From positions 1-46,508 of the forward strand of contig CAZQNA010000012.1 of the NCBI GenBank assembly GCA_964594835.1: 46,508 bases of DNA, written 5' to 3'. Under the pieces are notes generated by a model that worked only from the letters and a program-made list of their open reading frames with translations, searched no databases and was not told the DNA's origin. The number at the start of each line of letters is the position of its first letter. Position 1 is the stretch's first letter. Shown piece by piece: positions 2,666 to 42,277 of the stretch. Both the position numbers and the translations under genes were made by a program. This DNA comes from an uncultured Nitrososphaerota archaeon. GTDB lineage: Archaea; Korarchaeota; Korarchaeia; Korarchaeales; Korarchaeaceae.

Positions 2666-2701
2666 TTTTTCATCGCCCCTGGGGTCGCCGGAGTCAATTG
2701 G

Positions 2702-2765
2702 GGGGACTCGGTAGCGGAGAGTCTCTTCACGAGATCAGGCTGTGGAGCTGTCTCTCATAGTCCCC
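2702..2765 (-). ncRNA. Candidate box C/D sRNA (degenerate C box)
   Basis: Minus strand GGGGAC-U-AUGAGA-guide-CUGA-UCUC-GUGAAGA-12 nt guide-CCGA-GUCCCC; 6-bp terminal stem; intergenic. Confidence 0.55.
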
Positions 2766-2868
2766 TGAGCGAACCCACCCGCGAGGCACTCTTATTCCTT
2801 TCTCCGGGCCCCCTCTAACCTGACACCTCGCCCCGGTCTCCGCTGGGCCGCCCCCCGAAGGCTACGCG

Positions 2869-7732: not shown

Positions 7733-8505
7733 CTGTTCCGGTGCCTCGAGCCCTCCCTGACCGCCTCAGCGAGGCCGGACACCTTTTCGGCGGTCTCGCC
7801 GGACTCGATGTAGGTCCCCACCACTATCACGTCGGCCCCCGCGGCCGCCCTCTCCCGCGCCAGCTCGGGGGATCTGATCCCTCCCCCGACTATGACCCCG
7901 AGGCCTGTGTTCCTCCTGACGGCGGCCACCATCTCCGCTGGGACCGGCTGAGGGGCGCCGCTCCCCGCCTCCAGGTAGACCCACCTCATCCCCATCAGCT
8001 CCGCCGCCAGGGAGTAGGCCACGGCCAGCTCCGGCTTTCCCCTCGGGATCTGCCTCGCCCTCCCCACCCAGCCGGCGGCGCTCAGGCCCCCGGGCTCCAC
8101 TATGAGGTAGGCCGTCGGGATGGCCTCCAGCCGCATGGCCCTGATCCCGGGGGCCGCCAGGGCCTGGGCCTCCACTATCCAGTAGGTGCTGTCGGAGTTC
8201 AGGAGAGACATGAAGAGGAGCGCGTCCGCCTCCGGGGAGACCCCGTCCACGTTCCCCGGAAACAGTATGACCGGGACGGAGACAGACTCCTTGACCGCCC
8301 TTACTATGGAGTGGAGCTTGAGGCCGGCGCCGACGGATCCCCCCACGAGGATCAGGTCGGCCCCCGCCGACTCTGCCTCCGCGGCGACGCGACCGGCCTC
8401 GGTGGGGTCGACGTTGAAGGGGTCTATGAGGACGGCGAGCTGAGTCCTCTCGGACGCCGCCTCGGCCAGCCTGGATTCCACGGGCCCCAGCTTAGGTGTC
8501 CTCAT
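7726..8505 (-). CDS. Geranylgeranylglyceryl phosphate synthase
   Basis: LIDP, VGGS, ILFPG, FMSLLNS, YLEAGSGA, VGGGIRS. Confidence 0.95.
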   Translation of the reverse strand: MRTPKLGPVESRLAEAASERTQLAVLIDPFNVDPTEAGRVAAEAESAGADLILVGGSVGAGLKLHSIVRAVKESVSVPVILFPGNVDGVSPEADALLFMSLLNSDSTYWIVEAQALAAPGIRAMRLEAIPTAYLIVEPGGLSAAGWVGRARQIPRGKPELAVAYSLAAELMGMRWVYLEAGSGAPQPVPAEMVAAVRRNTGLGVIVGGGIRSPELARERAAAGADVIVVGTYIESGETAEKVSGLAEAVREGSRHRNSF

Positions 8506-8540
8506 GTCGGGCGGCTGCGGGGGCGAGGTTTAGATAAATC

Positions 8541-9119
8541 ATGACCGGTGTGTGCGTGTTGAAGGCGGGAGCGCGGGCCCTTGGGATCGACGACTGCCCC
8601 TTCGCCAGGGGGAGGGACGCCGAGACCTGGCTCGTCGGGGTCCTCATGAGGGGGAGCGTCATCGAGAGGGTGCTCGTGTCGGAGGTCCAGGTCGACGGAT
8701 CTGACGCCACGGACGCCATAGTATCGATGCACGAGGAGGGAGGGTCGGAGGCCCGGGTGATACTGACCCACGGCACGGTGGTGGCTGGCTTCAATCCGAT
8801 CGATCTGCGGGGGGTGTCCGAGGGGACCGGGGTGCCCGTCGTGGCCGTCCTCGAGAGGCCGCCCCGCTGGGACCTGGTCAGGAGGGCCATGGAATCGCAC
8901 GGCCTTGTCGAGAACCTGAGGGTGCTTGAGGAGAACCCACCCTACGCCCCCCTCGAGACCCCGAGGGGGGAGATCTTCTGCGCCAGCGTCGGGCTGGGTC
9001 GGGGCGAACTCCTGGAGCTCATCGCGAGGTGGCAGATCGAGTCGAAGATCCCCGAGCCCGTCAGGCTGGCGGATCTAATAGGGAGGTCGGTGGTCAGGGC
9101 GGCGCGGCGAACCTTATAG
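8541..9119 (+). CDS. DUF99 family (endonuclease V-like fold) protein
   Basis: GIDDCPF, VDGSDAT, AGFNPID, SKIPEPVRLA. Confidence 0.88.
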   Translation: MTGVCVLKAGARALGIDDCPFARGRDAETWLVGVLMRGSVIERVLVSEVQVDGSDATDAIVSMHEEGGSEARVILTHGTVVAGFNPIDLRGVSEGTGVPVVAVLERPPRWDLVRRAMESHGLVENLRVLEENPPYAPLETPRGEIFCASVGLGRGELLELIARWQIESKIPEPVRLADLIGRSVVRAARRTL

Positions 9120-9151
9120 CGAGCGATCCCGATCACCCCGGCGTCGGGGGC

Positions 9152-10102
9152 ATGAGGGTGAACTTCCTGGCCGTGGGGAACATATCCATAGACCTGATAC
9201 ACACAGAGGCGGGGTTCGCCAGGAGGGTCGCCGGCAGCTCCTTCTACGCGGCCCTGGCCGCCTCCAGGCTCGGCGTGAGCTCGGGGGTGCTGGCGAAGTG
9301 CGGACCCGAGGTCGAGCCCAGCAGGGACTTGAAGCCCCTGCTGGAGGCTGGCGTCGACCTCTCGGGCCTCGTGAGGGCCAGCGTGACCTCCTCGTACGAG
9401 CTGTTCTACAGGGGAGAGGACAGGACCCTCAGGCTCAGGAGGGTCGGGGAGGAGATAACGCCGGAGGACGTCGAGAGGGCGGGCGCATCTTGTGAGGCCG
9501 CCCTGGTCTCCCCGATCTACAGGGAGGTTCCCAAGGAGACGCTCCTGAGGATAAGGAGGAGGTGCGGCCTGCTGGCCGTGGACCCGCAGGGATACATCAG
9601 GCGGAGGATCAGGGGGGGCTGGATACGCTTCGCCAAGTGGAACCCGGCCAGGGGCCTGGAGGGCGCCGCGGACATAATAGTCACCAGCAAGCCCGAGCTG
9701 CCTTTTCTGGCGAGGGCGAGGGGGGATGAGGGTAAGCTGAGGGAGCTCCTGAATTCGGGGGCCGACATAGTCTTCATGACCCGGGAGGGCGGGGCCAGAG
9801 AGGCCCTGCTGGCGTTTGACGGGAGGGTCTTCAGGATACCGGTGGTGCCCCCCGGGAGGGTCGTTGACCCGGGCGGCGCGGGGGACGTGTCGGCCGCAGC
9901 CTTCGTCTCCGAGTTCATGAGGACGAAGGAGCCCGTCTGGTCTGCTCTATTTGCCTCCAGCGTGGCGAGCTTCATATATGAGGCGTTTGGGGCGGAGAGC
10001 GCGCCCGACAGGCGGATGGCGATCGAAAGGCTCCGCGTCTTTTTAATGAGGTCCCGCCCCGACCTATACCGCGAGTACAGGGCGCGCCTCGAGGATGGGT
10101 GA
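9152..10102 (+). CDS. PfkB/ribokinase-family carbohydrate kinase
   Basis: VGNISID, VDPQG, DPGGAGD; ATG 9152 preferred over the longer ORF that overlaps DUF99. Confidence 0.9.
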   Translation: MRVNFLAVGNISIDLIHTEAGFARRVAGSSFYAALAASRLGVSSGVLAKCGPEVEPSRDLKPLLEAGVDLSGLVRASVTSSYELFYRGEDRTLRLRRVGEEITPEDVERAGASCEAALVSPIYREVPKETLLRIRRRCGLLAVDPQGYIRRRIRGGWIRFAKWNPARGLEGAADIIVTSKPELPFLARARGDEGKLRELLNSGADIVFMTREGGAREALLAFDGRVFRIPVVPPGRVVDPGGAGDVSAAAFVSEFMRTKEPVWSALFASSVASFIYEAFGAESAPDRRMAIERLRVFLMRSRPDLYREYRARLEDG

Positions 10103-10120
10103 GGCCGCAGGGGTGAGCTC

Positions 10121-12460
10121 ATGTCGAAGTTCTCTCCCAAGATAGAGAAGAAGCGTTGGCTCCCTGAGATGGAGTTGGAGATCCAGGAGATGTGGGATAG
10201 GGAGAGGCTCTACGCGTTCGACCCCGACTCTGAGAGGCCCAAGTTCTCGATAGACACCCCCCCGCCCTACGCCAGCGGGAAGTGGCACATAGCCGCTGCG
10301 ATCCACTACTCCCAGATCGACATGATCGCGAGGTCCATGAGGATGCGGGGCTACGAGGTCTACTTCCCTATGGGGATCGACAGGAACGGGCTCCCCGTCG
10401 AGGTGGAGACGGAGAAGCGCCACGGGATCCACATGAGGGAATACCCCAGGGAGGAGTTCCTGAAGCTCTGCGCCCAGTTCCTCGACGAGAGCGAGACGGA
10501 CATCGTAAAGATCAGCAAGAGACTCGGAATAAGCGCGGACTTCGAGAACGTGTTCAGGACGGACAGCGAGATGTGGAGGGCAGTGACCCAGGCCACCTTC
10601 ATAGACGCGTGGAACAAGGGATACGTGTACGAGGACTACAGGCCCAACAACTACTGCCCCAGGTGCCAGACGACGCTGGCAGATGCGGAGGTGGAGTACA
10701 AGGACCTCAAGTCCGTCCTCGTCTACCTAAAGTTCGAGACGGAGGATGGAAAGGCGGTCACGATAGCCACCACCAGGCCCGAGCTCCTCCCCGCGTGCGC
10801 GGCCGTCATCTACAACCCGAACGACGAGAGGTACTGGTGGCTGAGCGGGAAGAAGCTGAAGACCCCGCTCGGCAGGGAGGTCCCGGTCCTGGAGCACCCT
10901 GCGGCCGACCCCGAGTTCGGGACCGGGCTGGTCATGGTGTGCTCCTACGGAGACAAGGCCGACGTTCAGCTGTTCAGGGAGCTGCACCTCGAGGCCACCA
11001 TAATCGTTGATGAGCACGGGAGGCTCAACGAGCGCGCGGGGAGGTACGCGGGGATGACCATCCAGGAGGCGAGGGAGGCCATCATCGAGGACCTCAAGTC
11101 CGCGGGGTACGTTGAGAGGGTCGAGACCATAGAGCACAGGACCCCCGTTTGCTGGAGGTGCAAGACCCCCATCGAGATAGTGCCCATGAAGGAGTACTAC
11201 CTGAAGCAGGTCGACTTCCTGAACGAGATCAGGCGCGCGGCCCTGGAGGAGATGAAGTTCTACCCGGACTGGGCGGTCCAGTACCTGCTGGACTGGATCG
11301 ACTCGGTCGACACCGACTGGCCCGTCTCCAGGAGGAGGTACTACGCCACCGAGATCCCAGTGTGGTACTGCAAGTCCTGCGGGAAGCCGGTGGTCCCGCC
11401 CCCCGGGAAGTACTACCAGCCCTGGAAGGAGGACCCGCCGTTCGACAGGTGCCCGCACTGCGGGTCGACCGAGGGGTTCATCGGAGAGGAGAGGGTGTTC
11501 GACACCTGGATGGACTCAGGCATATCCCCCCTCGTGTACAACGGGTACGGGTGGAACGAGGGCCTCTACAGGAAGCTGGGCGGCCCCTCTGACCTGAGGC
11601 CCCAGGGCAAGGACATAGTGCGGACCTGGCTCTTCTACACGCTGGTCAGGGTCTACCTGGCCACCGGGAGGCACGCGTTCAGGCACGTGTGGATCGGGGG
11701 AATGGGACTCGACGCCCGCGGTAGGGCCATGCACAAGTCGCTGGGGAACATAATCTACCCGTGGCCCATGTTCGAGAGGTACGGGGCCGATGCGGTGAGG
11801 TTCTTCGGCGCCGCAGAGGCCCACCACGGCTCCGACTTCAGGATATCCGAGGCCAAGATAGCGGGGGCCTTCAAGTTCCTCCAGAAGCTGTGGAACGTGG
11901 CCAGGTTCATCTCCGCGTTCCCAATCCCGGAGAAAGAGCCCGAGCTAAAGCCCACCGACCTCTGGATCCTGGGGGAGATGAACGACTACATCAGGAGGGC
12001 GCTGGAGGGGTACGAGAGGTTCGACTTCTTCGACCCGGCCAACTCGGCCAGGACGTTCGTCTGGCAGGTCTTCGCCCCACACTACATCGAGCTGGTGAAG
12101 GCCCGAGCCTACGGAGACGAGGGCATCCCGCGGGAGGACGTGGATGCCGCCAGGTGGACCCTCCACACGGTCCTAAGGGCCGTCCTCAGGTGGCTGGCCC
12201 CCGTGACCCCGCACATCACCGACTACCTCTGGAGGGAGCTCTACGGCGGATCGGTCCACAGGGAGAGCATGCCGGAGCCGGAGGAGAGGTGGGAGACCGA
12301 GTACAAATCCCTTGGAAAGAGGCTCATGGAGTTCAACAGCATGGTCTGGAAGATGAAGAAGGAGTCTGGCCTCAAGCTGAGCGATGAGATCAGCGTAGAC
12401 ATTCCAGAGGAGCTGAAGCCCCTCGAGGACGACCTCAGGAGGCTCCACAACATAAGGTAA
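10121..12460 (+). CDS. valS: Valine--tRNA ligase
   Basis: IDTPPPY, ATTRPELL, FGTGLVMVC, DWPVSRRRYYAT, FDTWMDS, RPQGKDIVRTW; variant class I signatures HIAA and AMHKS. Confidence 0.95.
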   Translation: MSKFSPKIEKKRWLPEMELEIQEMWDRERLYAFDPDSERPKFSIDTPPPYASGKWHIAAAIHYSQIDMIARSMRMRGYEVYFPMGIDRNGLPVEVETEKRHGIHMREYPREEFLKLCAQFLDESETDIVKISKRLGISADFENVFRTDSEMWRAVTQATFIDAWNKGYVYEDYRPNNYCPRCQTTLADAEVEYKDLKSVLVYLKFETEDGKAVTIATTRPELLPACAAVIYNPNDERYWWLSGKKLKTPLGREVPVLEHPAADPEFGTGLVMVCSYGDKADVQLFRELHLEATIIVDEHGRLNERAGRYAGMTIQEAREAIIEDLKSAGYVERVETIEHRTPVCWRCKTPIEIVPMKEYYLKQVDFLNEIRRAALEEMKFYPDWAVQYLLDWIDSVDTDWPVSRRRYYATEIPVWYCKSCGKPVVPPPGKYYQPWKEDPPFDRCPHCGSTEGFIGEERVFDTWMDSGISPLVYNGYGWNEGLYRKLGGPSDLRPQGKDIVRTWLFYTLVRVYLATGRHAFRHVWIGGMGLDARGRAMHKSLGNIIYPWPMFERYGADAVRFFGAAEAHHGSDFRISEAKIAGAFKFLQKLWNVARFISAFPIPEKEPELKPTDLWILGEMNDYIRRALEGYERFDFFDPANSARTFVWQVFAPHYIELVKARAYGDEGIPREDVDAARWTLHTVLRAVLRWLAPVTPHITDYLWRELYGGSVHRESMPEPEERWETEYKSLGKRLMEFNSMVWKMKKESGLKLSDEISVDIPEELKPLEDDLRRLHNIR

Positions 12461-12464
12461 GTAG

Positions 12465-12575
12465 TGGCGCCGGGGGTGGGATTTGAACCCACGTGGCCTC
12501 CGAGAGGCCACCGGATCTCGAGTCCGGCCCCTTGGCTTCGCCGGGCCGGAGGCCCTCTGGCTAGGGTACCCCGGC
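12465..12575 (-). tRNA. tRNA-Ser(CGA) with 20-nt non-canonical intron in the D loop
   Basis: GCCGGGG/CCCCGGC acceptor, G discriminator plus CCA, CCGGA-CT-CGA-GA-TCCGG, long variable arm; oversize D loop resolved by removing 12537-12556. Confidence 0.93.
12537..12556 (-). other. tRNA intron (about position 18/19) with BHB/BHL-like splice motif
   Basis: AGGGCCTCCGGCCCGGCGAA; internal GGGCC/GGCCC hairpin; bulges AG|A and AA|G; removal gives D loop AGCCAGGCCAA as in the tRNA-Glu of this window. Confidence 0.8.
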
Positions 12576-12584
12576 ACCCAACCG

Positions 12585-12607
12585 TTTATCACGCTCCGGG
12601 TATATAA
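12585..12607. promoter_or_regulatory. Divergent TATA-like boxes for tRNA-Ser and the pgm gene
   Basis: TTTATC (12585) and TATATAA (12601) in a 47-bp gap between divergent genes. Confidence 0.6.
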
Positions 12608-12622
12608 CCGCTCGGTGGGGGC

Positions 12623-13966
12623 ATGGGGAGGCTGTTCGGCACCGCGGGCGTCAGGGGAGTGTACGGAGTCCAGATCGACGAATTCTCGGCCTTGAGATTC
12701 GGCAGGGCCGTCGCGAGGGTGATGGAGAGCGAGTCCCTCATAGTCGGCTGGGACGGGAGGCTGAGCAGCCCCTCGCTGGCGGCCGCGGTCATAAGCGGGG
12801 TGCTGTCGGAGGGAAAAGACGTCAAGCTCCTGGGGCTCGCGCCCCTGCCCGTGACCTGTAGGTCTGCCAAGGTGCAGGAGGTCGCGGGGATATACGTCAC
12901 CGCCAGCCACAACCCTCCCGAGTTCAACGGGTTCAAGGCCATATCCTCGAGGGGGGCGGAGGCCACCCGCGAGGAGGAGAGGAGGGTCGAGGCCGAGTTC
13001 GACGGGCTCCCCAGCCCTCGACTCCCTGAGAGGCGACCGGAGGTCTCCCCCTCGGGCTACACGTCCGCAGACTACGTTCGAGACCTGCTGAAGTCCTCCG
13101 GCTTCGGGGTTGGCGTGAGGGTCGTGCTGGATCCGGGAAATGGATGCGCCTCAGACCTCGCCCCGGAGGTCATATCGAGGATGGGCGCGCGGGTGACGAC
13201 CATGAACGACTGGATCGACGGGAGGTTCCCCGGCAGGCCCTCGGAGCCGACCCGAGAGAACCTGGCGGGGCTCGGCGAACTCGTGAGAAGGCTGGAGGCC
13301 GAGATGGGGATAGCCTGGGATGGAGACGCCGACAGGGTGGCGGTCGTCGACGGCTCCGGGCAGTTCGTCCCGCAGTACGCCGTCTCCTCGCTGGCCGCGC
13401 TGGTCCTGCGGGCCAGGAGGGTGATAGTCTCCGTGGACATGGGGTGGGGGATCAGGGACCTCGTCGAGTCCTGGGGTGGGAAGGTCGTTGAGTGGAGGCT
13501 GGGGGACCTCCACAGCGAGTACTTCAGGAGGGCGTCAGAGGGCTGGGAGGCGGACCTGGTGACGGAGCCCTGGAAGATCATGTCGCCCGGATGGGGCCCC
13601 TTCTTCGACGGAATAATGGCCTCAACGCTCGTCCTCAGGGCGGTCGGGGAGTTCGGCTCCCTGGGGGAGGCGCTTGACGCGGTGCCCAGGTACTTCCAGG
13701 AGAGGATGAGCTTCCGCTTCGAGGGCGACAGGGAGGCGACCCTCGCGGCCCTGGCCTCCAGGGTGGAGCGGGCGCTGGGGAGGAGGGTCGTCGAGATCAG
13801 CAGACTGGACGGGGTGAAGTACGTCCTGGAGGACGGCTGGGTGCTCCTGAGGATGAGCGGGACGGAGCCCAAGGTGAGGGTCTACCTGGAGTCCAAGAGC
13901 GAGGAGGGGCTGGCAGAGCTGAGGAGGATCGCCCTCGAGGCCCTCAGGGATGTTGGGGTGGCGTGA
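12623..13966 (+). CDS. Phosphohexomutase (PGM/PMM/GlmM family)
   Basis: LFGTAGVRG, TASHNP, DGDADR, RMSGTEP. Confidence 0.93.
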   Translation: MGRLFGTAGVRGVYGVQIDEFSALRFGRAVARVMESESLIVGWDGRLSSPSLAAAVISGVLSEGKDVKLLGLAPLPVTCRSAKVQEVAGIYVTASHNPPEFNGFKAISSRGAEATREEERRVEAEFDGLPSPRLPERRPEVSPSGYTSADYVRDLLKSSGFGVGVRVVLDPGNGCASDLAPEVISRMGARVTTMNDWIDGRFPGRPSEPTRENLAGLGELVRRLEAEMGIAWDGDADRVAVVDGSGQFVPQYAVSSLAALVLRARRVIVSVDMGWGIRDLVESWGGKVVEWRLGDLHSEYFRRASEGWEADLVTEPWKIMSPGWGPFFDGIMASTLVLRAVGEFGSLGEALDAVPRYFQERMSFRFEGDREATLAALASRVERALGRRVVEISRLDGVKYVLEDGWVLLRMSGTEPKVRVYLESKSEEGLAELRRIALEALRDVGVA

Positions 13967-14735: not shown

Positions 14736-16282
14736 CGACTCGGGATGGCTCCGCGGATGGCGGGGAGGAGTCGACCAGGGCCATCGTCTCGGTTCTGCTG
14801 GGCATGGGTTACCACCTCACTCCCAAGGCACTAAGGATACTCTCGGAGGAGGTTCGAGACATCTCCGACCTCATCTCGGAGATTGAGAGGAAAAGGGAGA
14901 GCCTGCCTCCGGTCCTCGACGAGGAGGTGGTCAGGGGGATTGTGGAGGAGATAGCGAGTAGGATGGGCGCCCCGGAGGAGCCCAACCAGGGACGCGGAGG
15001 CCAGGTGGAGGCCCATCCCAGGGACGCGCCCCACGAGGTCCAGGTTCAGGTCCCCCCGCGGGTCACGGTAGAGGTCGATCCCGTCTTGGCCGTCAGGAGG
15101 GGGGTTCCGGAGGAGTTCGTCGAGTACTTCCAAGACAGGTTCGCCAGGCTCCTAGAGGTGGCGAGGAAGAGGTTCCGGGAGGGGCTCTACACGCCCTCTC
15201 AGGTTCGGCTCAGGGGGAGGGAGCTCCCCAGGGTCCACGTCGCCGGGCTTGTCTCGGAGAAGAGGGCAACGAGGAGGGGGATCGTCCTGGTTCTGGAGGA
15301 CGAAAGCGATCAGATCAGGGTGTTCGTTCCCAGGGAGGAGTTGGACCTCTACAGAGCCGCGGAGAGCGTGATGATGGACCAGCTCCTGGTCGTCAGCGGA
15401 GAGGTCGACCCGAGGAGGGGGACCCTGAGGCCGGACTCGATTCAGCACCCGGACGTGCCGGGGGGGTTCACGCCCAAGAGGTCGGAGGCCCGAAAGCGCG
15501 CGGTCCTCATCTCGGACATCCACGTCGGGAGCAGCTACTTCCTGGAGGACCTGTGGAAGAGGTTCGTCGACTGGCTCAGGGGGGAGGGGAGAGACGTCGA
15601 GTACGTCCTCATATGCGGGGACCTGGTCGACGGGGTGGGCATATACCCGGACCAGGAGGACGAGCTCGAGATCAAGGACATATACGGGCAGTACGAGAAG
15701 GCCGGAGAGCTCCTCTCGATGCTCCCCAGTCACGTGAAGGTAATCTACATACCCGGAAACCACGAGCCCGTCAGACAGGCCGAGCCGCAGCCCAGAGTCC
15801 CGGACAGGTTCCTGAGGCCGCTGATGGACGCCCTGGACAGTCTGGTGGCTGCGGGGAACCCGGCGCTGGTGAACGTGGAGGGGGTCAGGATCCTCATGTA
15901 CCACGGTAGGAGCCTTAACACGGTCTTCAAGTACGTCCCGGGCCTCCAGCCGCCGACGGGGAGGAGCGTCGTCAGGGCGATGGCCCACCTCCTGAGGGCG
16001 AGGCACCTGGCGCCGATGTACGGGGAGCACCCGATCGCACCGGAGTCCAGGGACTGGCTGGTCATCGAGGAGGTCCCGGAGGTCGTCCACATGGGGCACG
16101 TCCACGTGTTCGGCGTCGGGGCCTACAAGAACGTCAGGCTGATAAACTCGGGAACCTTCCAGGCCGAGACGCCTTACATAAAGAAGATGGGGATAACGGC
16201 GACGCCGGGGATCTTCCCGGTCCTCTCGCTGCACGACCTCAGCGTGAGGCCTCTAGATCTCCGGCCGCCTACACCCGCGTGA
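14732..16282 (+). CDS. DNA polymerase D small subunit DP1 (proofreading exonuclease)
   Basis: OB fold then calcineurin-like motifs ISDIHVGS, GDLVDG, PGNHE, YHGRS, RHLAP, MGHVH; GTG overlaps upstream TGA. Confidence 0.96.
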   Translation: MTTRDGSADGGEESTRAIVSVLLGMGYHLTPKALRILSEEVRDISDLISEIERKRESLPPVLDEEVVRGIVEEIASRMGAPEEPNQGRGGQVEAHPRDAPHEVQVQVPPRVTVEVDPVLAVRRGVPEEFVEYFQDRFARLLEVARKRFREGLYTPSQVRLRGRELPRVHVAGLVSEKRATRRGIVLVLEDESDQIRVFVPREELDLYRAAESVMMDQLLVVSGEVDPRRGTLRPDSIQHPDVPGGFTPKRSEARKRAVLISDIHVGSSYFLEDLWKRFVDWLRGEGRDVEYVLICGDLVDGVGIYPDQEDELEIKDIYGQYEKAGELLSMLPSHVKVIYIPGNHEPVRQAEPQPRVPDRFLRPLMDALDSLVAAGNPALVNVEGVRILMYHGRSLNTVFKYVPGLQPPTGRSVVRAMAHLLRARHLAPMYGEHPIAPESRDWLVIEEVPEVVHMGHVHVFGVGAYKNVRLINSGTFQAETPYIKKMGITATPGIFPVLSLHDLSVRPLDLRPPTPA

Positions 16283-17474
16283 CCTCGTTCAGGATCTCCT
16301 TGAGGCGGAGAGGTGGAAGGGCGGTCCCCCGAACGACCTTGGTGTTCCCCCTCGCCCCGCCATAGCTCATCTCTATCTCCAGGATCCCCTGGGACTCGAG
16401 CTCCCTCAGGATGGCGCTGACCCTCCTCATGGTGAGCGGGCTCACGAGGAAGCGCCTGGCGTACCTCTCGTACCTCTCGTAGATCTTCCCAGTTCCGGGT
16501 CTCGGGTCCCCGGCCAGGAGGAGATCGACAGCCGCCTTCAGGACCAGTAGGTGGTGGAAGGGGAGCGTCCTGATGGCGACCTGGACCTCGCTCTCGTCGA
16601 CCCTTATCTCCGCCTGACTCACGTGGTCCTCGGTGAGCCTCCCGCTCCTGTCCTTCTCGGCCAAGATGGCGGCCATCCTGAGGAGGTCTATCGCCCTCCT
16701 CGCGTCTCCGCCCTCCCTGGCCACCTTGGCCGCGATCCTCCTGAGGGCCGCGTCCTCCCAGGATCCCGGCCTCAGCCCAAGCCTGGCCCTCTGCAGGAGT
16801 ATGTTGTAGAGCTCGTCGGCTGTGTATGGCTGGAAGAAGATCCTGTCCGGGTTGTAAGAACTCCTGACCCTCCTGTCAAGCCTCTCGAGGAAGTTCAGCG
16901 TGTTGGATATCCCGAGGACCGTCACCGAGTTCCTCCTGAGGTCGAGGTCGTAGTTCATCCTGGTGAGGGAGTAGAGGAGCCTCCCCCCGTCCCTCCTGAC
17001 GAGGAGGTCGACCTCGTCGAGGACCAGGAATAGCCTCACGTCGGCCTCCAGGAAGGCCTTCTTGAAGTTGTCCTCGAGGACGTCGTAGGGATAACCGCTC
17101 GGCGGGATCAGGATCCCAAAGGCCCTGTTCAGCTGGTACATGACGCGGTATGAGGTGTTGGCCTGCGAGCAGTTGATGTATATGAACCGGACCGGGGCGC
17201 CCCTCAGCTCCTCCGACTTGCGCCTGAGAACGTGCTTGGCCACGGCCGTCTTTCCGGTCCCGGCCATTCCGTTGAAGGCGAGGTGGGATGGGGGCTCGTT
17301 GAAGAGGAGGGGCTCCAGGTGATCCTCGAACATGAGGATCTGCTCGTCCCTCCCGGGGAGGGTCTCCGGGACGTACGCGTCCGAGAGAACCCTCCTGTCG
17401 AGGATTATCCTCACGTTTCTCCCACTAGAGATCGAATTCAGGTGAGTGTACCTTGCTGCCAACCGATTCCCCAC
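16269..17474 (-). CDS. cdc6: Orc1/Cdc6 replication initiator (origin-adjacent copy)
   Basis: YVPETLPGRD, GMAGTGKT, YINC, VLDEVD, RVRSS, GDARRAIDLLR, C-terminal winged helix. Confidence 0.96.
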   Translation of the reverse strand: MGNRLAARYTHLNSISSGRNVRIILDRRVLSDAYVPETLPGRDEQILMFEDHLEPLLFNEPPSHLAFNGMAGTGKTAVAKHVLRRKSEELRGAPVRFIYINCSQANTSYRVMYQLNRAFGILIPPSGYPYDVLEDNFKKAFLEADVRLFLVLDEVDLLVRRDGGRLLYSLTRMNYDLDLRRNSVTVLGISNTLNFLERLDRRVRSSYNPDRIFFQPYTADELYNILLQRARLGLRPGSWEDAALRRIAAKVAREGGDARRAIDLLRMAAILAEKDRSGRLTEDHVSQAEIRVDESEVQVAIRTLPFHHLLVLKAAVDLLLAGDPRPGTGKIYERYERYARRFLVSPLTMRRVSAILRELESQGILEIEMSYGGARGNTKVVRGTALPPLRLKEILNEVTRV

Positions 17475-31097: not shown

Positions 31098-31463
31098 ATG
31101 GATCTTCGCGTGAGGCTCGTGGAGCGGACGGAGGACTCGATAGGCGGAATCGCGAACCTGAAGTTCGAGGTGGAGTCCCCAACGAGGGGCGTTCTCTCGA
31201 TCGAGCTTCCCCTGGACCTCGCCAGGAGGGTCCCAGACGGATACTCCGGGGAGGCCACCCTGACCAGGGAGAGGCCGTCTCACGACCGGGATGACCTCCT
31301 CATGACTCTGGTGATCTATCAGCCGGGAGAGAGTTCTCTTCACGCCTCGGCCTTCGGTCTCCTTGTCTCACTCGACTTTGAGACGCCCGTGAAGGAGCTC
31401 TCAGGCCTCTCCCGGGGGGACGAGGCCTACCTCCTGATCAAGCACATGTTCACGGTAGATTAG
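31098..31463 (+). CDS. rpoG: RNA polymerase subunit Rpo8/RpoG (Rpb8 homologue)
   Basis: Size and ordered motifs DDLLMTLVIY, SAFGLLVSL, DEAYLLIK resemble recalled Sulfolobales RpoG (SLFGLLV) and eukaryotic Rpb8 (SFGGLL). Confidence 0.75.
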   Translation: MDLRVRLVERTEDSIGGIANLKFEVESPTRGVLSIELPLDLARRVPDGYSGEATLTRERPSHDRDDLLMTLVIYQPGESSLHASAFGLLVSLDFETPVKELSGLSRGDEAYLLIKHMFTVD

Positions 31464-31475
31464 GCAAGGGCCGAA

Positions 31476-31536
31476 TGATTTGGAAACTTCTCTCAAAGTT
31501 TTTTGGAAAAGTAGTTCCTAATGTTAACGATATATA
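31476..31536 (+). promoter_or_regulatory. AT-rich promoter with tandem TTTGGAAA boxes and TATATA
   Basis: TTTGGAAA at 31479 and 31502 (23 bp apart); TATATA 31531-31536. Confidence 0.6.
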
Positions 31537-31698
31537 GCCGCGTGCTCGGAGTTACGTGGGTGGTGGGCGGTAGCCGAGGTCGCGAGGGGGACGCCCGCGT
31601 CCGCGGATTCGCCTGAGCTGGCTGCCGAGTTCTACCCCCAGCACCACTATCCCATCAAGCCGAGTGGGGGCGTTCGGGTTCCCAGGTGGCTCCCTGCC

Positions 31699-32316
31699 GT
31701 GATGATTGAGCTCGGGGGGCCGCCCCAGCTCTTAGAACTCACCAGGGACTTGGTCAAGGACTTGCGCCTCCCCTCTCACGCCAAGAGGGATGGATACGTA
31801 TTCCTGGCGGCCCTCATAGTTGCGAGCCGCGTCATCGGAATCCCATTCACCCTGAGCGCCGTCTCGAGGGCCTCTGCGGCGGTCGGTGTGAGGGTCAGTC
31901 CCAGGAGGCTAGCGCTGGTCGTCGCGGAGGTCTCCTCGCTCCTCAGACTTGGGGGTCACTCCGCCCGCGTTCAGAAGCACATCGCCGCCGTCATAGCCGC
32001 GCTGAGGCGGGACCCCACCCTCCAGCGGACCCTTTCCGAGTACTTCGGTCCGTGCTGGGACGTAGCACTTGACAGACTTCAGGTGAAGTCCGTTGAGCTG
32101 TACAACTTGGTTAGGGATGAGATCAGGCTGGAGCTCGTCGGGAAGAGCCCCCCAGTCACTGCGGCCGCCGTAGTCTGGCTGTCCGCCCGGACCCTCGGCC
32201 TCCGGCCGTTGACGCAGGAGGTGATCGCCAGGGCCGCGGGGATCAGCCCCTCGGCACTTAGAAGGCGGGCCAGAACGGTTCGGAGGAGTCTGGAGGCATG
32301 TGGACATGCCCGATAG
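31699..32316 (+). CDS. Divergent TFB/TFIIB-like protein (cyclin repeats only, no Zn ribbon)
   Basis: AALIVASRVIGIPFTL (repeat 1-like) and GKSPPVTAAAVVW...LTQEVIARAAGISPSALRRR (repeat 2 and HTH); true start uncertain. Confidence 0.72.
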   Translation: MMIELGGPPQLLELTRDLVKDLRLPSHAKRDGYVFLAALIVASRVIGIPFTLSAVSRASAAVGVRVSPRRLALVVAEVSSLLRLGGHSARVQKHIAAVIAALRRDPTLQRTLSEYFGPCWDVALDRLQVKSVELYNLVRDEIRLELVGKSPPVTAAAVVWLSARTLGLRPLTQEVIARAAGISPSALRRRARTVRRSLEACGHAR

Positions 32317-33979
32317 GTCGGACAGGCTTCCACTCCTCCTCGTAGCCGCAGTCGCCGTCAACGAGCTTAGGAAGAGGCTCGTCGGAGACGCGAACATGCT
32401 ATCCTCCGTCGTGGGGCGAATTTCGGGGAGAGGCCTCCCCTACCTGCTCGTTGGACTCTCGGCAGCCGCCGTCGTGGTGTCACTACCCAGGCTCCGCAGG
32501 AGGTCTGTAGGGGAGGTGGTCCGCGCCTACGCGCTCTCGCCGAAGTCCCCCCGGTCTGACCTTGAGCTCGACGTCTCCCTCGTCCATCAGGTCCTGGAGG
32601 CGACTCAGCTCGAGGGGCACCTGATCCAACGCGTCGGGGCGCGTGGACCCTCCCCCCCAATTCTCCTCGTGACCGAGAGGAGAAGGGAGGACGGGCCGGC
32701 GATAAGGGCCGCCCTGTCGGCCCTCCGAAGCGTCACGGGTCGCAGGGTCGAGGTCGTCGAGTTGGGGACCAGGCCGCTTCAGGAGGTCCTTAAGTTGACC
32801 TCCACCCCCAGGAGCGAGTCTGCGATTAGGCTGCGACTCCCCAGCGCGGATGCGGGACCCCGGCCCCCGGCAGTCCTCCTCGGCTACTCCGATGGGAGGA
32901 GGCCTGTCCGCATACCGCTCCCCCTGTTCTCTAAGCACGTCCTTCTGATGGGTCGGACCGGGTCGGGAAAGTCTACCACGGCGATGGCCCTGTGTGAGAG
33001 GCTGTGGTCGGATTACGGGATCCCCTTCCTGGTCTTGGATCACCACAACGAGTACACGGGGCTGGTCGCCCGCCTCGGAGGGACGCTCGTGGGAGCCTCG
33101 GGCGGCCCCTCCCTGAACGTCTTCGGGGGAGTCGCGGCCAACCCGGCGGCGATGGACATCTACGTGGATCTCCTGAGGGACGCCCTGGCGCTGACCCCAT
33201 CCCAGACCTTCATCGTCCACAGGTGTCTCTCCAACGCTCTGAGGGTGAGCCCAGGGGAGGATCCGACGCTGGCCGACCTGGTGGATGAGATATCGGAGTA
33301 CAGGGAGAGGACGGGCCCCGAGATGGAGAGCAAGCTCGCCCTCCTCAGAAGACTCGAGCCCCTCGTGAGCGGGGAGGGCAGGGCGCACCTGCTCGTGGAG
33401 AGGATCCCAGACCTGGCTCGGCTCGACAGGCCTGCGGCGATGCTTCTTGCCGAGGTGAGGTCCGATGCCGTGAGAGATCTCCTGGTTCACGTGATCCTGA
33501 AGAGGATCTACGACGAGGCCAGGTCTTGGGGAGTAGGATCTCACCTGAGGCTGGTCATCCTCGTTGAGGAGGGGGAGCGCGTCCTCCCAACGGTCTCCGA
33601 CGAGAGGGGGGCGACGGTCGTCGACAAGATGCTGGCCGAGCTCCGGAAGTTCGGCGTCGGCCTCGTGATAATCACGCAGGCACCTCACGCCCTGTCGAGG
33701 ACCGCCATGAGGAACTCCGCCGTGAAGATAATTCACGCCCTGGGGTCCCCCAGAGACTCCCTGGTGATCAAGCCCCTCCTACCACCCGGGATCTCTGATA
33801 GATCCTCTGAGGGCTCCGTGTTTACCTTGAGGCCCGGCGAGGCCGTCGTAGTAATGGAGGGCGCTCCCGAGCCGGAGCTGTGTACGGTGGTCCCACCCTC
33901 CACGGACACCAGGCCCCTGTCCCCGGCAGAGGTGGCGGCCCTCTCTCAGATGGCACCCTCCTTTCACGCGCACGTCTAA
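32306..33979 (+). CDS. Membrane-anchored HerA/VirB4-like (DUF87) ATPase
   Basis: N-terminal hydrophobic segments, HVLLMGRTGSGKST, LDHHNEY, ILVEEGE, ELRKFGVGLVIITQ. Confidence 0.88.
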   Translation: MPDRSDRLPLLLVAAVAVNELRKRLVGDANMLSSVVGRISGRGLPYLLVGLSAAAVVVSLPRLRRRSVGEVVRAYALSPKSPRSDLELDVSLVHQVLEATQLEGHLIQRVGARGPSPPILLVTERRREDGPAIRAALSALRSVTGRRVEVVELGTRPLQEVLKLTSTPRSESAIRLRLPSADAGPRPPAVLLGYSDGRRPVRIPLPLFSKHVLLMGRTGSGKSTTAMALCERLWSDYGIPFLVLDHHNEYTGLVARLGGTLVGASGGPSLNVFGGVAANPAAMDIYVDLLRDALALTPSQTFIVHRCLSNALRVSPGEDPTLADLVDEISEYRERTGPEMESKLALLRRLEPLVSGEGRAHLLVERIPDLARLDRPAAMLLAEVRSDAVRDLLVHVILKRIYDEARSWGVGSHLRLVILVEEGERVLPTVSDERGATVVDKMLAELRKFGVGLVIITQAPHALSRTAMRNSAVKIIHALGSPRDSLVIKPLLPPGISDRSSEGSVFTLRPGEAVVVMEGAPEPELCTVVPPSTDTRPLSPAEVAALSQMAPSFHAHV

Positions 33980-33990
33980 GGAGCGGCGAC

Positions 33991-34560
33991 TCACGGATCC
34001 TCAGCCCTGAGCCTCTGCACCGTGAGCGGCCCCAGCGGCCAAGAGAGAGGCGGAGTCCTCGTCATCTCCCCGCGGAGAGCTCCCAAGATAACTCGAACAA
34101 CGTCCTCTGGCTTTCCCGTCGAGGTGTCGAGTTCCAGGACCAGCTCGCTCCCCACGTGCTCCCGGGCAGACTGGCCGCAGTAGTCGACGATCTCGGCCTC
34201 GACGTTCTCTATCACCTTCGCCTTGGGATATCCCCTGCTGAGCAACCTCTCCGCGAGCACCTCGGGGTTGCACCTCAGGACGACCACGAGCCTGACGAAC
34301 TCCGGGGGGACCGCCTCGGGGTAGGCCGTGGAAACCACGCTCCACCCACTCTTTTCCCTGAGATCCCTGCGGAGGGCCTCCCTCACCCCCTCTACGTCCA
34401 GCACCAGGACCCCCCTCTCCCGGTCGGCGCCGAGCACCAGCCTCTCTCGGATCGCGTACTCGTTGACCTCAAGGACGTCTGCCCCGAGCTCGCCGGCCAG
34501 CATCCTGGAGATGGTCGTCTTCCCCGAGCCCGGAACCCCGGTCACAAGCACGACGGGCAA
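33991..34560 (-). CDS. Adenylate kinase, AK6/Fap7 type
   Basis: TGVPGSGKTT, LRCNPEVL..RL..RGY...KV.ENVEAE. Confidence 0.92.
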   Translation of the reverse strand: MPVVLVTGVPGSGKTTISRMLAGELGADVLEVNEYAIRERLVLGADRERGVLVLDVEGVREALRRDLREKSGWSVVSTAYPEAVPPEFVRLVVVLRCNPEVLAERLLSRGYPKAKVIENVEAEIVDYCGQSAREHVGSELVLELDTSTGKPEDVVRVILGALRGEMTRTPPLSWPLGPLTVQRLRAEDP

Positions 34561-41140: not shown

Positions 41141-42277
41141 GTGCGCGAGGAATACAAGCTCTCCCACGGCTACAACCCTCCTAGGCTCCCCCACAGGGAG
41201 GAGGAGCTGAACAGGATACGCCACGCCCTCGAGACGGGTTCTGGCCCCCTCTTCATCTACGGGAAGACGGGCGTCGGCAAGACCACGGTATCTGTAAACG
41301 CCGCCAATTCGGTCAGCAAGTCGACCGTCCCCCCCGCGTACGTCAACTGCTCCTTCTACAGAACCGCGTCAAGGGTCTTGTCGGAGGTAATCCGTCAGCT
41401 GAGCAGCGGGATGCCTGAGAGGGGAATCTCCTTTCACGACAGGCTGTCCCTGCTGGAGACGATAGTGGCGGACCTCGACGGGCGGGTGACCATAATTCTG
41501 GACGAAGTTCAGGACCTCAAGGGGGGAGGGGAGCTCCTGTACTCTCTCCTGAGGCTCCACGAGGGTGGTCGGGCGCCCCCGCTCGGCAGGCTGGTGGTGA
41601 TATGCAGGGAGGAGTCTCGCCCCCAGTTCCTGGCCGAGAGATCCACCCTCAGCTTCTTCACCCTCAGGATGAGGTTCAGGCCGTACACGCAGGATCAGCT
41701 CCTAGACATACTGAGGGCCCGGGCCAGTGAGGCCCTGAGGCCCGGCTCCTTCTCTGACGACGCCCTCAGGGAGATAGCCCGACTAACCGCCGCCTATCAG
41801 GAGGGCAACGCCCGGTACGCTCTCTCCCTCCTGAAGGCGGCCGCCCTCCTGGCCGAGAGTGAGGGCTCCCTCGTGCTGGACGTCGACCACGTCCGACGCG
41901 CGGAGGAGGACGCGGAGGTTGCCGCAGTCGATCTCTCCATCTTGGAGGGACTGGACCTCCACAACCAGCTGATACTCCTCGCGGTCGCCAGGCTTCAGTC
42001 GGCCAGCGAGAGGTGGGTGACCACGGGGGCGCTCGAGGAGGAGTACCACGTTGTGGCCGAGGGCTATGGAGTTCCCCCCCTCAAGCACACCGCGACCTGG
42101 AGGAGGATCAAGGAGCTGGGGACCCTCGGCGTGTTTGAGATCCGCAGATCCGGGAAGGGGCTGAGAGGCCAGACGACCCTCATATCGCTAAGGGTCAATC
42201 CAGAAGAACTCTCAAGCGTGGTTGAGGCCATCTTGGACAGGAAGGTCGGCCGGTGGCCCATCAAGACGGCGCCCTGA
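41141..42277 (+). CDS. cdc6: Orc1/Cdc6 paralogue (Orc1-2-like)
   Basis: PPRLPHREEE, GKTGVGKT, YVNC, ILDE, GNARYAL, HT.TW...SGKGLRGQTTLI. Confidence 0.92.
   Translation: MREEYKLSHGYNPPRLPHREEELNRIRHALETGSGPLFIYGKTGVGKTTVSVNAANSVSKSTVPPAYVNCSFYRTASRVLSEVIRQLSSGMPERGISFHDRLSLLETIVADLDGRVTIILDEVQDLKGGGELLYSLLRLHEGGRAPPLGRLVVICREESRPQFLAERSTLSFFTLRMRFRPYTQDQLLDILRARASEALRPGSFSDDALREIARLTAAYQEGNARYALSLLKAAALLAESEGSLVLDVDHVRRAEEDAEVAAVDLSILEGLDLHNQLILLAVARLQSASERWVTTGALEEEYHVVAEGYGVPPLKHTATWRRIKELGTLGVFEIRRSGKGLRGQTTLISLRVNPEELSSVVEAILDRKVGRWPIKTAP

Follow-up and report, generated by a model that had tools for sequence, protein, structure and literature searches.

The window, that is, the whole stretch of 46,508 nucleotides that was analysed, belongs to a genome that is korarchaeal and not Sulfolobales-like. 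It contains the korarchaeal form of a conserved unit in which rpo8 is followed by a short TFB paralogue and then by a gene for a CedD-like ATPase. The features of this cluster are listed below, together with what each assignment is based on:

31098..31463, plus strand: rpo8/rpoG, RNA polymerase subunit 8, 121 aa (profile match to Rpb8/Rpo8 chains)
31459..31540, plus strand: AT-rich, promoter-like spacer with a TATA-like box (GC minimum; congeneric alignment)
31541..31698, plus strand: leader, formerly the 5′ coding part of the TFB-like gene (alignment to relatives)
31699..32316, plus strand: ORF1, short TFB paralogue, 205 aa, GTG start (fold, homology, domain census)
32300..33979, plus strand: ORF2, CedD-like membrane-anchored HerA/VirB4-type P-loop ATPase (Pfam, NCBIfam, AF2, Foldseek, tree)
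33991..34560, minus strand: putative kinase, AAA_18/PRK03839-type, convergent (Pfam, NCBIfam)

Neighbourhood and conservation of the cluster

ORF1 and ORF2 overlap, as had been read from the sequence originally, and the overlap measures 17 nt. The adjacency on which the idea of a two-gene module depended is conserved, the pair being found side by side on the same strand in 35 of the 43 genomes of the phylum. It was also present in 25 of the 80 genome-contig loci scanned, and all 25 were loci with korarchaeal-type neighbourhoods. The surrounding genes are those of the exosome, L37Ae, Brix, Pcc1, tRNA-Val, a kinase, UMP kinase, and TYW1. The original prediction had described the pair as interrupting housekeeping genes, which is correct for the flanking genes but not in the sense of an insertion, because the place of the cluster is conserved phylum-wide. 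A recent insertion or a mobile island was ruled out, as the GC content (~0.64–0.67) matches the surroundings and the position is kept across the phylum; the cluster is resident.

The gene convergent with ORF2 matched AAA_18 in Pfam (1.2e-21) and PRK03839 in NCBIfam (3.8e-31). An AAA_18 gene also lies convergent and downstream of the ATPase in the scanned loci of Methanosuratincola, Brockarchaeota, Nitrososphaeria, and Conexivisphaerales, and ORFs of ~185–210 aa fill this position in most loci. This putative kinase, assigned by sequence, is a conserved neighbour of the ATPase.

The single 121-aa protein encoded upstream of the pair had no match in Pfam or NCBIfam. When a profile of 13 korarchaeal orthologues was searched against PDB sequences, it matched the Rpb8 of S. 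pombe (3h0g_H, E 3.3e-13) over positions 2–113 of 117, and the archaeal Rpo8 chains with E values from 5e-9 to 1.7e-4, with 36rp_G and 7ok0_G at ~5e-9. Judged by this full-length profile match to solved Rpb8/Rpo8 chains, the ORF at 31098–31463 is Rpo8, and in the korarchaeal loci the TFB-like gene is likewise preceded by an ORF of 110–137 aa. The rpoG–TFIIB-like neighbourhood of a korarchaeote was published in 2007 (PMC2234397), and it also occurs in Thermoproteales, in which TTX_1929 (tfb3) adjoins TTX_1930 (RPB8) (PMC2234397, PMC3189178). This neighbourhood has thus been noted since 2007 without an explanation, and the CedD-like ATPase now appears as its third partner.

The TFB-like protein and the spacer ahead of it

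The upstream stretch had been called unusually AT-rich, and indeed positions 31459–31535 constitute the 77-mer with the lowest GC content of the entire window (0.338 vs. 0.646). An ATATATA box was found at 31530–31536, and the spacer aligned with those of two congeneric loci, in which an ATG start follows ~20 nt past the AT-rich box. By these features the spacer is promoter-like and a candidate promoter. Position 31476, from which the original prediction had the module begin, falls inside this spacer, upstream of ORF1. The GC-rich 160 nt that follow the TATA box were considered as an RNA gene, and this was dropped, since Rfam returned only chance-level matches (E ~6) for the window at gathering thresholds and for 31400–31760 at E <= 10.

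The start of ORF1 has changed relative to its relatives. Their ATG start is matched in the alignment by GTG 31556, which lies in a different frame from ORF1 and encodes VGGGR before a stop. The ORF1 frame itself has no stop as far back as 31528 and retains the relatives' HYP...PRW, with no ATG, GTG, or TTG in this upstream part, and AGGTGG is found at 31685–31690, 9 nt ahead of GTG 31699. No indel was observed in the region 31541–31698 across contigs of 4 runs from 2 samples. These 4 are DNA runs, and no RNA run was listed among the 7 runs that contain this DNA. Because the ancestral start is out of frame, the TFB-like gene may be partly degenerate in this genome.

ORF1 is a diverged TFB core, made of two cyclin repeats and a C-terminal HTH. 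Alone, it had no TFIIB match in Pfam at E <= 0.1; two of its orthologues (L029 and L033) exceeded the Pfam TFIIB cut-off. An initial word-based homologue search, which returned 2 relatives of ORF1 and 13 of ORF2, was superseded by an exhaustive profile search and genome scans. A profile of ORF1 and 2 orthologues, searched against 1.84 billion representatives, retrieved 67 proteins at E <= 1e-3, and Pfam TFIIB repeats were detected in 29 of the 31 that were scanned. The best PDB matches of the AF2 model (pLDDT 80.2) in Foldseek were TFIIB cores (5wh1_B, E 2.6e-4, also 1ais_B and 1d3u_B), with low TM-scores of 0.3–0.4. Moreover, hhalign aligned residues 130–302 of the canonical TFB of this genome with the ORF1-family profile at a probability of 99.3% (E 2.6e-20), in a match spanning ORF1 residues 1–194, and the arginines were kept in the aligned HTH segment (AAGISPSALRRR in ORF1 vs. 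AAGVTEVTVRNR in the canonical TFB). The cyclin fold that had been proposed for ORF1 is therefore upheld by its TFIIB-repeat relatives, by the structural matches to TFIIB cores, and by hhalign. The TadC-like protein found at the same position in other classes was rejected as a homologue of ORF1, since those proteins are polytopic membrane proteins.

The canonical TFB (contig C10, 332 aa) shares the two cyclin repeats and the C-terminal HTH with ORF1, which differs from it in having neither the Zn ribbon nor the B-reader/B-linker and in being only 18% identical over the core. In canonical TFB, the C-terminal HTH reads the BRE, and the Zn ribbon and the B-reader/B-linker of TFB/TFIIB are needed for RNAP recruitment and start-site selection. 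The predicted absence of a Zn ribbon was confirmed by a census of the CxxC..CxxC motif, which is missing both from ORF1 and from the open frame upstream of it. In other genera, this ribbon was found in 17 of the 32 distinct orthologous frames, joined almost directly to the core, and it was missing in the other 15, of which 3 are cut or fragmentary. Since orthologues in other genera keep the ribbon, its loss in this genus is secondary, and the family was not ribbon-less ancestrally. The TFB truncation had been described as the opposite of that of TFB3, which stands for ORF1 itself. What is constant in the sequences of the whole family is the loss of the B-reader/B-linker: in the canonical TFB the core starts at residue 130, after the ribbon and ~79 residues of reader/linker, whereas it starts at about residue 48–58 in the ribbon-bearing orthologues, leaving ~20–25 residues, and ORF1 begins at the core.

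The CedD-like ATPase and its pilus-linked relatives

The product of ORF2, 559 aa long, or 557 aa if ATG 32306 is the start, belongs to the HerA/VirB4 branch of P-loop ATPases and is membrane-anchored and of the hexameric type. It matched DUF87 (1.5e-15) and HerA_C (1.3e-6) in Pfam, and its Walker A (GRTGSGKS) and Walker B (LVILVEEGE) motifs were located, the EE pair of the latter being invariant in 25 aligned relatives. The AF2 model comprised a helical hairpin (7–66), with hydrophobic helices at 7–29 and 44–66, an alpha/beta N-terminal domain (71–205), and the ATPase (205–530). By Kyte–Doolittle hydropathy, the first helix is weak (1.25) and the second strong (2.14) in this genus, and both exceed 2 in most other genera. 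The membrane-anchored DUF87 ATPase with N-terminal helices and a VEEGE Walker B that had been predicted was thus recovered by Pfam, AF2, and hydropathy.

In Foldseek, the top matches of ORF2 were DNA-translocating HerA hexamers (2.3e-17), and the C-terminal domain of VirB4 was also matched (4ag6_A, 9.8e-12). Among NCBIfam families the best score was that of CedD, with 105 bits (E 4e-30), followed by HerA_Thermprot (50) and CedB (24.5–24.9). These values fall far below the equivalog cut-off of 600 bits for CedD (NF053655) and of 700 bits for CedB (NF041017). Other members of the clade scored 120–186 bits on the CedD model, korarchaeal and Brockarchaeota members reaching 182–186, and a protein from a Sulfolobales MAG, found with the ORF2-family profile (E 2e-73), scored 283 bits. 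A phylogenetic tree placed ORF2 in a clade with SH-aLRT 96, apart from HerA, and the own HerA of this genome (contig C4) scored 329.7 bits on the HerA model in the genome scan, against 29.6 for ORF2; a grouping with the soluble, NurA-associated HerA was thus not obtained. These scores indicated that the closest characterised relative of ORF2 is CedD rather than CedB or the NurA-linked HerA, at a similarity far below the equivalog cut-off. The analogy to Ced drawn in the original prediction is thus closer than was supposed there, with CedD and not CedB as the counterpart.

In this genome, which is 97.4% complete, the CedB model retrieved only ORF2 (24.5 bits) and a fragment (22 bits), and VirB4 (TIGR00929) had no match at E <= 1e-3. 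No CedD above the cut-off was found in five genomes of the same domain. The CedD-like family was detected in 40 of 43 Korarchaeota genomes at E <= 1e-20, and also in loci of Methanosuratincola, Brockarchaeota, Bathyarchaeota, Geothermarchaeota, and Nitrososphaeria. In other Thermoproteota, a Tad-like type IV pilus operon ends with the orthologue of ORF2: in the loci of Methanosuratincola, Brockarchaeota, and Nitrososphaeria, a T2SSE ATPase, two TadB/C-like membrane proteins, and a ~67-aa pilin-like protein precede the ATPase. In the genome studied here, the best homologue of that T2SSE is encoded on contig C9, where T2SSF and a prepilin peptidase are also found along with a second TFB paralogue of the short kind, this one bearing the ribbon. 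This pilus locus has no CedD-like gene.

Possible functions and comparison with known systems

The most likely reading, to which we give about an even chance, is that a TFB-derived promoter-binding regulator is co-expressed with a CedD-like DNA translocase. Under this hypothesis, both genes would be co-transcribed from the AT-rich promoter, which would couple the amount of regulator to that of the motor, and the ATPase, working at the membrane, would pump DNA or energise an apparatus for pilus-linked DNA transfer. The TFB-like protein would be unable to complete initiation alone and would act as a promoter-bound regulator on the TBP/BRE sites of a small regulon, consisting of its own operon and of pilus/DNA-transfer genes, and there it might rival the canonical TFB or modulate its action. 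Such a role would be a functional parallel to TFB3, the activator of cedD in Sulfolobales. We infer, in line with the original prediction, that ORF1 may bind TBP/BRE but not recruit RNAP. With 105 bits against the cut-off of 600, ORF2 may or may not equal CedD in function.

The main rival, considerably less probable in our view, takes the TFB-like core as a stoichiometric subunit of the membrane ATPase and not as a free transcription regulator, either as a DNA-recognition/loading adaptor that hands DNA to the translocase, or as a factor that the ATPase tethers to the membrane until a signal sets it free, much as an anti-sigma factor does. The tight operon linkage, kept across the phylum despite a divergence that reaches ~25% identity, would suit physical contact at least as well as regulation. 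The genes overlap, and are probably translationally coupled, in 8 of 22 loci, this one included, but they lie 28–139 nt apart in the other 14, so that coupling is not universal. That the Zn ribbon, which docks to RNAP, was lost repeatedly (15/32 frames, with 3 cut or fragmentary) suggests a conserved function that does not need RNAP recruitment, and TFIIB-fold proteins can bind DNA outside transcription, as eukaryotic Orc6 does. Complex predictions of ORF1 with ORF2 residues 75–557, made from two alignments, gave an ipSAE of 0.00 in both runs; made without controls, these weigh neither for nor against binding. On the other hand, the short TFB paralogue on C9, whose pilus locus is devoid of a CedD-like gene, suits regulators better than subunits, and TFB3, the Sulfolobales counterpart, is by experiment a transcription activator (PMC6101594).

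Two further readings are improbable. The ATPase could be an assembly or secretion ATPase of a pilus or surface structure, in a VirB4-like role, with the TFB-like protein as the local transcription factor of that regulon. It is consistent with the fold match to VirB4 and with the orthologues that end Tad-like pilus operons, yet those operons already have a T2SSE assembly ATPase of their own, and the top fold matches are DNA-translocating hexamers. Among the regulators predicted for type IV pilus loci of archaea, TFIIB homologues are reported to be the commonest (PMC4858521, 2016), but the best-scoring characterised family, CedD, serves DNA import and not aggregation or pili (PMC11823120). Slightly more doubtful still is a role centred on RNAP, in which the TFB paralogue acts together with RNA polymerase and Rpo8, for instance as the alternative or auxiliary initiation factor proposed in 2007, and its adjacency to the ATPase is a gene order conserved within a housekeeping superoperon without any functional relation. 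The position of rpo8, which in the korarchaeal loci, this one included, directly precedes the TFB-like gene on its strand, and its recurrence beside TFIIB-like genes in Thermoproteales (PMC2234397, PMC3189178) would fit such a role, as would the persistence of the ATPase–kinase adjacency in classes lacking the TFB-like gene, which makes the placement of the ATPase independent of that gene. However, ORF1 lacks the very segments on which RNAP recruitment and start-site selection depend, the candidate promoter between rpo8 and ORF1 groups the TFB-like gene with the ATPase and not with rpo8, and TFB paralogues recur beside pumping ATPases in three lineages (including PMC4858521).

The phylum-wide conservation of the trio hints that TFB-derived factors and machines that pump DNA have long been linked. 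A bolder version, which we regard as speculative and rather unlikely, is that truncated TFB paralogues and membrane DNA-pumping ATPases are an ancient, phylum-spanning functional pair; the korarchaeal factors (core only, or ribbon and core), those of Thermoproteales (ribbon and one cyclin), and TFB3 would descend from one ancestral TFB duplicate tied to a pilus/CedD-type machine for DNA transfer, the korarchaeal protein being a DNA-recognition/loading subunit of the CedD-like translocase at the membrane. If true, DNA uptake or export would be linked directly to DNA recognition of the promoter type, and possibly through Rpo8 to RNA polymerase. Three different TFB truncations are found beside FtsK/HerA-superfamily ATPases in three lineages, which offers a concrete origin for TFB3 that can be tested, and a CedD-like family beyond Crenarchaeota would make pilus-coupled DNA transfer a Thermoproteota-wide trait and not a crenarchaeal speciality. 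The factors also form a natural "domain-deletion" set (core only; ribbon and core without the reader; ribbon only), which could be used to dissect the role of each TFB domain at promoters.

The pair had been proposed as a possibly undescribed module. It is not entirely new, as the rpoG–TFIIB neighbourhood (2007) and TFIIB homologues in pilus-like ATPase loci (2016) had been published. No description of this particular pair turned up in the literature searched, nor a paper linking CedD to Korarchaeota, though supplements on CedD or type IV pili might list korarchaeal homologues. CedD was named only in 2025, and the surveys in both CedD papers cover just Crenarchaeota (PMC11868833, PMC11823120); a text search of a 2026 study on Korarchaeota genomics returned nothing on TFB, HerA, Ced, or pili (PMC12787533).

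Among known systems, NurA-associated HerA, a soluble protein with a HAS-barrel, shares with ORF2 the ATPase fold, its hexamers being the top PDB matches, while ORF2 differs in its membrane anchor, its N-terminal domain, and its separate clade. CedD (SiRe_1715/Saci_0667; TedD in Thermoproteales) resembles ORF2 more closely, as it combines a TM segment, an uncharacterised N-terminal domain, and a C-terminal HerA/VirB4-like ATPase (PMC11868833). DNA import in Sulfolobales needs CedD (PMC11868833, PMC11823120), which is dispensable for aggregation and pili (PMC11823120). The gene, earlier known as herA1 (SiRe_1715), is TFB3-dependent, TFB3 being enriched at its promoter in ChIP (PMC6101594), and it is damage-induced through TFB3 (PMC11868833, PMC11823120, PMC6101594). 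As with ORF2, a gene for a truncated TFB paralogue lies nearby: by the locus-tag numbers given in publications, tfb3 (SiRe_1717, PMC7515695; saci_0665, PMC5817253) is two tags away from cedD (SiRe_1715, saci_0667). In contrast to CedD, which occurs together with CedB and CedA (TedD with VirB4/TedB), ORF2 scores below the equivalog cut-off, has a korarchaeal host, lies within a housekeeping cluster, and has no CedB or VirB4 partner detected in its genome.

TFB3 is like ORF1 a truncated TFB paralogue, and regulation as well as genomic proximity links it to a CedD-type ATPase and to genes for pili and DNA transfer. As described in PMC6101594, it retains the Zn ribbon and a coiled coil without the cyclin core, whereas ORF1 has the opposite composition, with the whole core and neither ribbon nor reader/linker. 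As ORF1 has no ribbon, the mechanism of TFB3, which acts on RNAP through the ribbon, cannot apply to it. The predicted operon of subclade 4D in Thermoproteales, described by Makarova, Koonin, and Albers in 2016, encodes a VirB11-type ATPase, a membrane protein of 4–5 TM segments, and the TFIIB homologue arCOG05559, as well as RPB8 (PMC4858521). As in the korarchaeal cluster, rpo8/RPB8 shares one predicted operon or neighbourhood with the genes for a TFIIB homologue of reduced length and for an ATPase that is membrane-associated and belongs to the FtsK-HerA superfamily, and these authors too suspected a transcription-related role. The ATPase of subclade 4D belongs to the T2SSE/VirB11 branch and has a separate membrane protein, whereas ORF2 is of the HerA/CedD type with its own anchor; by domain content, the TFIIB variant of that operon combines a Zn finger with a single cyclin domain (PMC4858521), and ORF1 has two cyclin domains.

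The rpo8, TFB-like and ATPase gene cluster

The window is GC-rich (0.646) and crowded with housekeeping genes, comprising those for Spt5, L11/L1/L10, tRNA synthetases, proteasome alpha, SBDS, the exosome, L37Ae, Brix, Pcc1, Orc1/Cdc6 and RFC. The following features of the window and of two other contigs of the same genome are considered here:

31098-31463, + strand: Rpo8/RpoG, an RNA polymerase subunit identified by an orthologue-profile match; the gene before ORF1
31699-32316, + strand: ORF1, the TFB-like gene, 205 aa
32300-33979, + strand: ORF2, the CedD-like membrane ATPase, 559 aa
33991-34560, - strand: small kinase of the AAA_18/PRK03839 type, convergent, downstream of ORF2
16272-17474, - strand: Orc1/Cdc6 gene
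41141-42274: second Orc1/Cdc6 gene, adjoining RFC genes
Contig C10: canonical TFB, 332 aa
Contig C9, pilus locus: second short TFB paralogue, 277 aa, Zn ribbon present, Pfam TFIIB at 24.9 bits

ORF1 and ORF2 overlap by 17 nt. The promoter-like, AT-rich stretch that the original prediction had placed before the pair was recovered, since positions 31459-31535, 5′ of ORF1, form the most AT-rich 77-mer in the whole window (GC 0.338), and the motif ATATATA is found upstream of ORF1 at 31530-31536. The Rpo8 reading frame alone had no Pfam or NCBIfam match and could be identified only once 13 orthologues were combined in a profile; this matched Rpb8 (3h0g_H) at E 3.3e-13, while the E-values for archaeal Rpo8 chains were about 5e-9.

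Elsewhere in the window, the second most AT-rich 77-mer starts at 17528 (GC 0.429), just upstream of the Orc1/Cdc6 gene at 16272-17474, and this region is a candidate replication origin. It was also observed that a 108-nt tRNA at 12468-12575 (- strand), detected by Rfam with 45.8 bits and missing from the ARAGORN output, probably contains an intron.

A TFB core and a CedD-like ATPase

As a single sequence, ORF1 fell below the Pfam TFIIB model and gave no match, and no more than two relatives came from a word-based search. The profile built from these three proteins retrieved 67 matches among 1.84 billion representatives, and TFIIB repeats were present in 29 of the 31 that were scanned, several of which also carried a TFIIB Zn ribbon. 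The best structural matches to the AF2 model of ORF1 (pLDDT 80.2) were TFIIB cores (5wh1_B at E 2.6e-4), and the Pyrococcus TFB-TBP-DNA entries 1ais and 1d3u were matched as well; the TM-scores against TFIIB cores were low, at 0.3-0.4, probably owing to a different relative orientation of the repeats in the model. By hhalign, residues 130-302 of the canonical TFB were aligned with residues 1-194 of ORF1, the C-terminal HTH included, with a probability of 99.3% and an E-value of 2.6e-20. Profile search, Foldseek and hhalign thus agreed on the cyclin fold, and ORF1 is a TFB core.

The loss of other TFB domains differed in extent. Korarchaeal orthologues of other genera present an N-terminal CxxC..CxxC ribbon followed by the core from about residue 48-58, whereas some 79 residues of B-reader/B-linker separate ribbon and core in the canonical TFB; loss of the reader/linker is therefore a family-wide feature. 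The ribbon-less state claimed originally holds for the whole genus of the window organism, in which a cysteine-poor N-terminal extension is found instead, but not for the family, as 17 of the 32 distinct orthologous frames retain the ribbon and the 15 others include a single fragment and two frames truncated by the end of a locus.

In a DNA alignment with two congeners, their ATG start was located about 20 nt 3′ of the AT-rich box, for which reason their TFB-like gene is probably leaderless. This ATG aligns with GTG 31556 in the window, the ancestral start of the TFB-like gene, which net indels have shifted out of the ORF1 frame, so that it now encodes VGGGR followed by a stop (5 codons). The ORF1 frame remains open 5′-ward as far as 31528, and the HYP...PRW motifs of its relatives can still be read in it; however, no ATG, GTG or TTG occurs in it between 31528 and the ORF1 start. 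From the sequence, the N-terminal extension is disabled in the window's own copy, and the presumed site of translational restart is GTG 31699 or ATG 31702, preceded by AGGTGG and a 9-nt spacing. Contigs from two samples (four runs), among which the source sample may be included, were free of indels across 31152-34100, and the frame disruption can therefore not be put down to an assembly error in a single data set. The region 31528-31698 may be a leader that carries a mini-ORF; alternatively, a non-canonical start or a frameshift may be involved.

ORF2 was matched by DUF87 and HerA_C in Pfam, and its AF2 model (pLDDT 79) comprised N-terminal helices at 7-29 and 44-66, an alpha/beta domain at 71-205 and the ATPase at 205-530. 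According to hydropathy, the second helix is clearly membrane-like (2.14) and the first marginal (1.25); both exceed 2 in the orthologues of most other genera. HerA hexamers were the top Foldseek matches (9x1m_A, 2.3e-17), and the VirB4 C-terminal domain 4ag6_A was also matched (9.8e-12). ORF2 had been proposed to be a CedB-like membrane ATPase; the Ced likeness holds, but the best NCBIfam family was CedD (105 bits, E 4e-30), followed by HerA_Thermprot (50 bits) and CedB (25 bits). The CedD model gave up to 182-186 bits for further proteins of its clade, and all lie far below the equivalog cut-off of 600 bits. With the models used, neither a CedB nor a VirB4 was identified in the genome of the window, which encodes a separate HerA (329.7 bits). 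In a quick ML tree of 39 sequences, built without verified CedB or over-cut-off CedD, ORF2 was placed inside a korarchaeal clade (SH-aLRT 99) that grouped with a clade from other Thermoproteota, a CedD-like protein of a Sulfolobales MAG and long actinobacterial forms (SH-aLRT 96), while HerA stood apart, contrary to a grouping of the ATPase with HerA.

Two side observations concern this family. One member, P0087 (1101 aa), carries LAGLIDADG and intein-splicing Pfam domains and, from these, is probably an intein-containing ATPase. Actinomycetota proteins of about 870-1040 aa (loci L083-L095; P0103-P0123) are closest to the CedD-like family in their C-terminal part and score 62-73 bits with the CedD model; in both loci that were scanned, the ATPase gene is immediately preceded by an unannotated 377-aa gene, which is codirectional in L085 and on the opposite strand in L092.

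Conservation of the pair and link to pilus operons

The adjacency is conserved, and the observation of a TFB-like ORF overlapping a membrane ATPase is real and more than chance. Scans with the family profile and with the CedD model placed the TFB-like gene immediately 5′ of a codirectional ATPase gene in 35 of the 43 genomes of the korarchaeal group, ranked as a phylum in the collection. Among the eight misses, two had the genes on separate contigs, at the contig ends, three were incomplete genomes (63-80% complete) in which one partner was not found, and three belonged to two outlying families with ATPase frames of 855-918 aa and no short TFB-like gene. The 35 include one genome (G015, 75% complete) in which both genes are interrupted by stop codons (contig C198, about 980-3180); the two may have decayed together, or the assembly may be poor. 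In named genomes, the arrangement occurred in 25 of 80 loci, all 25 with a korarchaeal neighbourhood.

The convergent kinase follows the ATPase in Korarchaeota and several other Thermoproteota classes, at the same position in L046-L086. Loci of Methanosuratincola, Brockarchaeota, Nitrososphaeria, Geothermarchaeota and Conexivisphaerales also keep it; there, the genes 5′ of the ATPase code for a T2SSE ATPase, a pair of polytopic TadB/C-like proteins and a protein of about 67 aa whose N-terminus is Flp/pilin-like. The ATPase-kinase order has thus outlasted the replacement of everything 5′ of the ATPase, and the ATPase family is linked to pilus operons. In L048-L082 (e.g., L051:83-4613 and L054:71-4781), from Methanosuratincola, Brockarchaeota, Nitrososphaeria and related MAGs, the ATPase is the last operon gene, and no description of this pilus and CedD-like operon was found in the literature searched. 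In the genome of the window, the best match to the pilus-operon T2SSE is the T2SSE ATPase of a type IV pilus locus on contig C9, at about 8100-13700 (L136, L140), which also holds a T2SSF protein, a Peptidase_A24 prepilin peptidase and the second short TFB paralogue.

Proposed roles and published counterparts

By analogy with CedD, ORF2 would act on DNA at the membrane. The TFB-like protein could still bind TBP/BRE-type promoter DNA without completing initiation and would therefore serve as a dedicated regulator of a small regulon for pilus and DNA transfer, a role to which we give roughly even chances. The main rival is that the TFB-like protein belongs physically to the ATPase motor, as a subunit or as its DNA adaptor. 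Linkage in one operon and the recurrent ribbon loss are well in line with such a partnership. A single, uncontrolled complex prediction for ORF1 with ORF2 (ipSAE 0.00 in both runs) speaks neither for nor against it. We consider the partnership possible but about half as probable as the regulator role, and the remaining rivals were rated less probable still.

The original interpretation was right in spirit, with the corrections described, and its suggestion of an undescribed module holds in part: in the literature searched on CedD/TedD and Korarchaeota, including a 2026 Korarchaeota genomics paper, nothing on this pair was found. Related neighbourhoods, however, have already been published. Koonin, Makarova and Elkins (2007; PMC2234397) described a TFIIB-type gene (printed 'TFIIIB') as a common rpoG neighbour, codirectional in the korarchaeote, and Makarova, Koonin and Albers (2016; PMC4858521) named TFIIB homologues as the commonest predicted regulators of archaeal type IV pilus loci. 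The latter also reported an operon from Thermoproteales that joins a VirB11-type ATPase and a membrane protein to a TFIIB variant and RPB8, and for this operon a transcription-related role was suspected. In T. tenax, tfb3 (TTX_1929) adjoins RPB8 (TTX_1930) (PMC3189178).

CedD itself, a membrane ATPase of the HerA/FtsK superfamily essential for DNA import, was characterised in 2025 in two studies whose surveys covered Crenarchaeota only (PMC11868833, PMC11823120). The cedD gene (SiRe_1715, earlier named 'herA1') is reported to be TFB3-dependent, with TFB3 ChIP enrichment at its promoter (PMC6101594). Judged from the published locus tags, tfb3 (SiRe_1717, PMC7515695; saci_0665, PMC5817253) is two tags away from cedD (SiRe_1715; saci_0667). 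TFB3 is the proposed functional parallel of ORF1, yet the two are built from opposite halves of TFB. The cluster constitutes no new category, since both CedD-type ATPases and pilus-type loci with TFB paralogues are known kinds; its most interesting element is that differently truncated TFBs recur beside pumping ATPases in three lineages.
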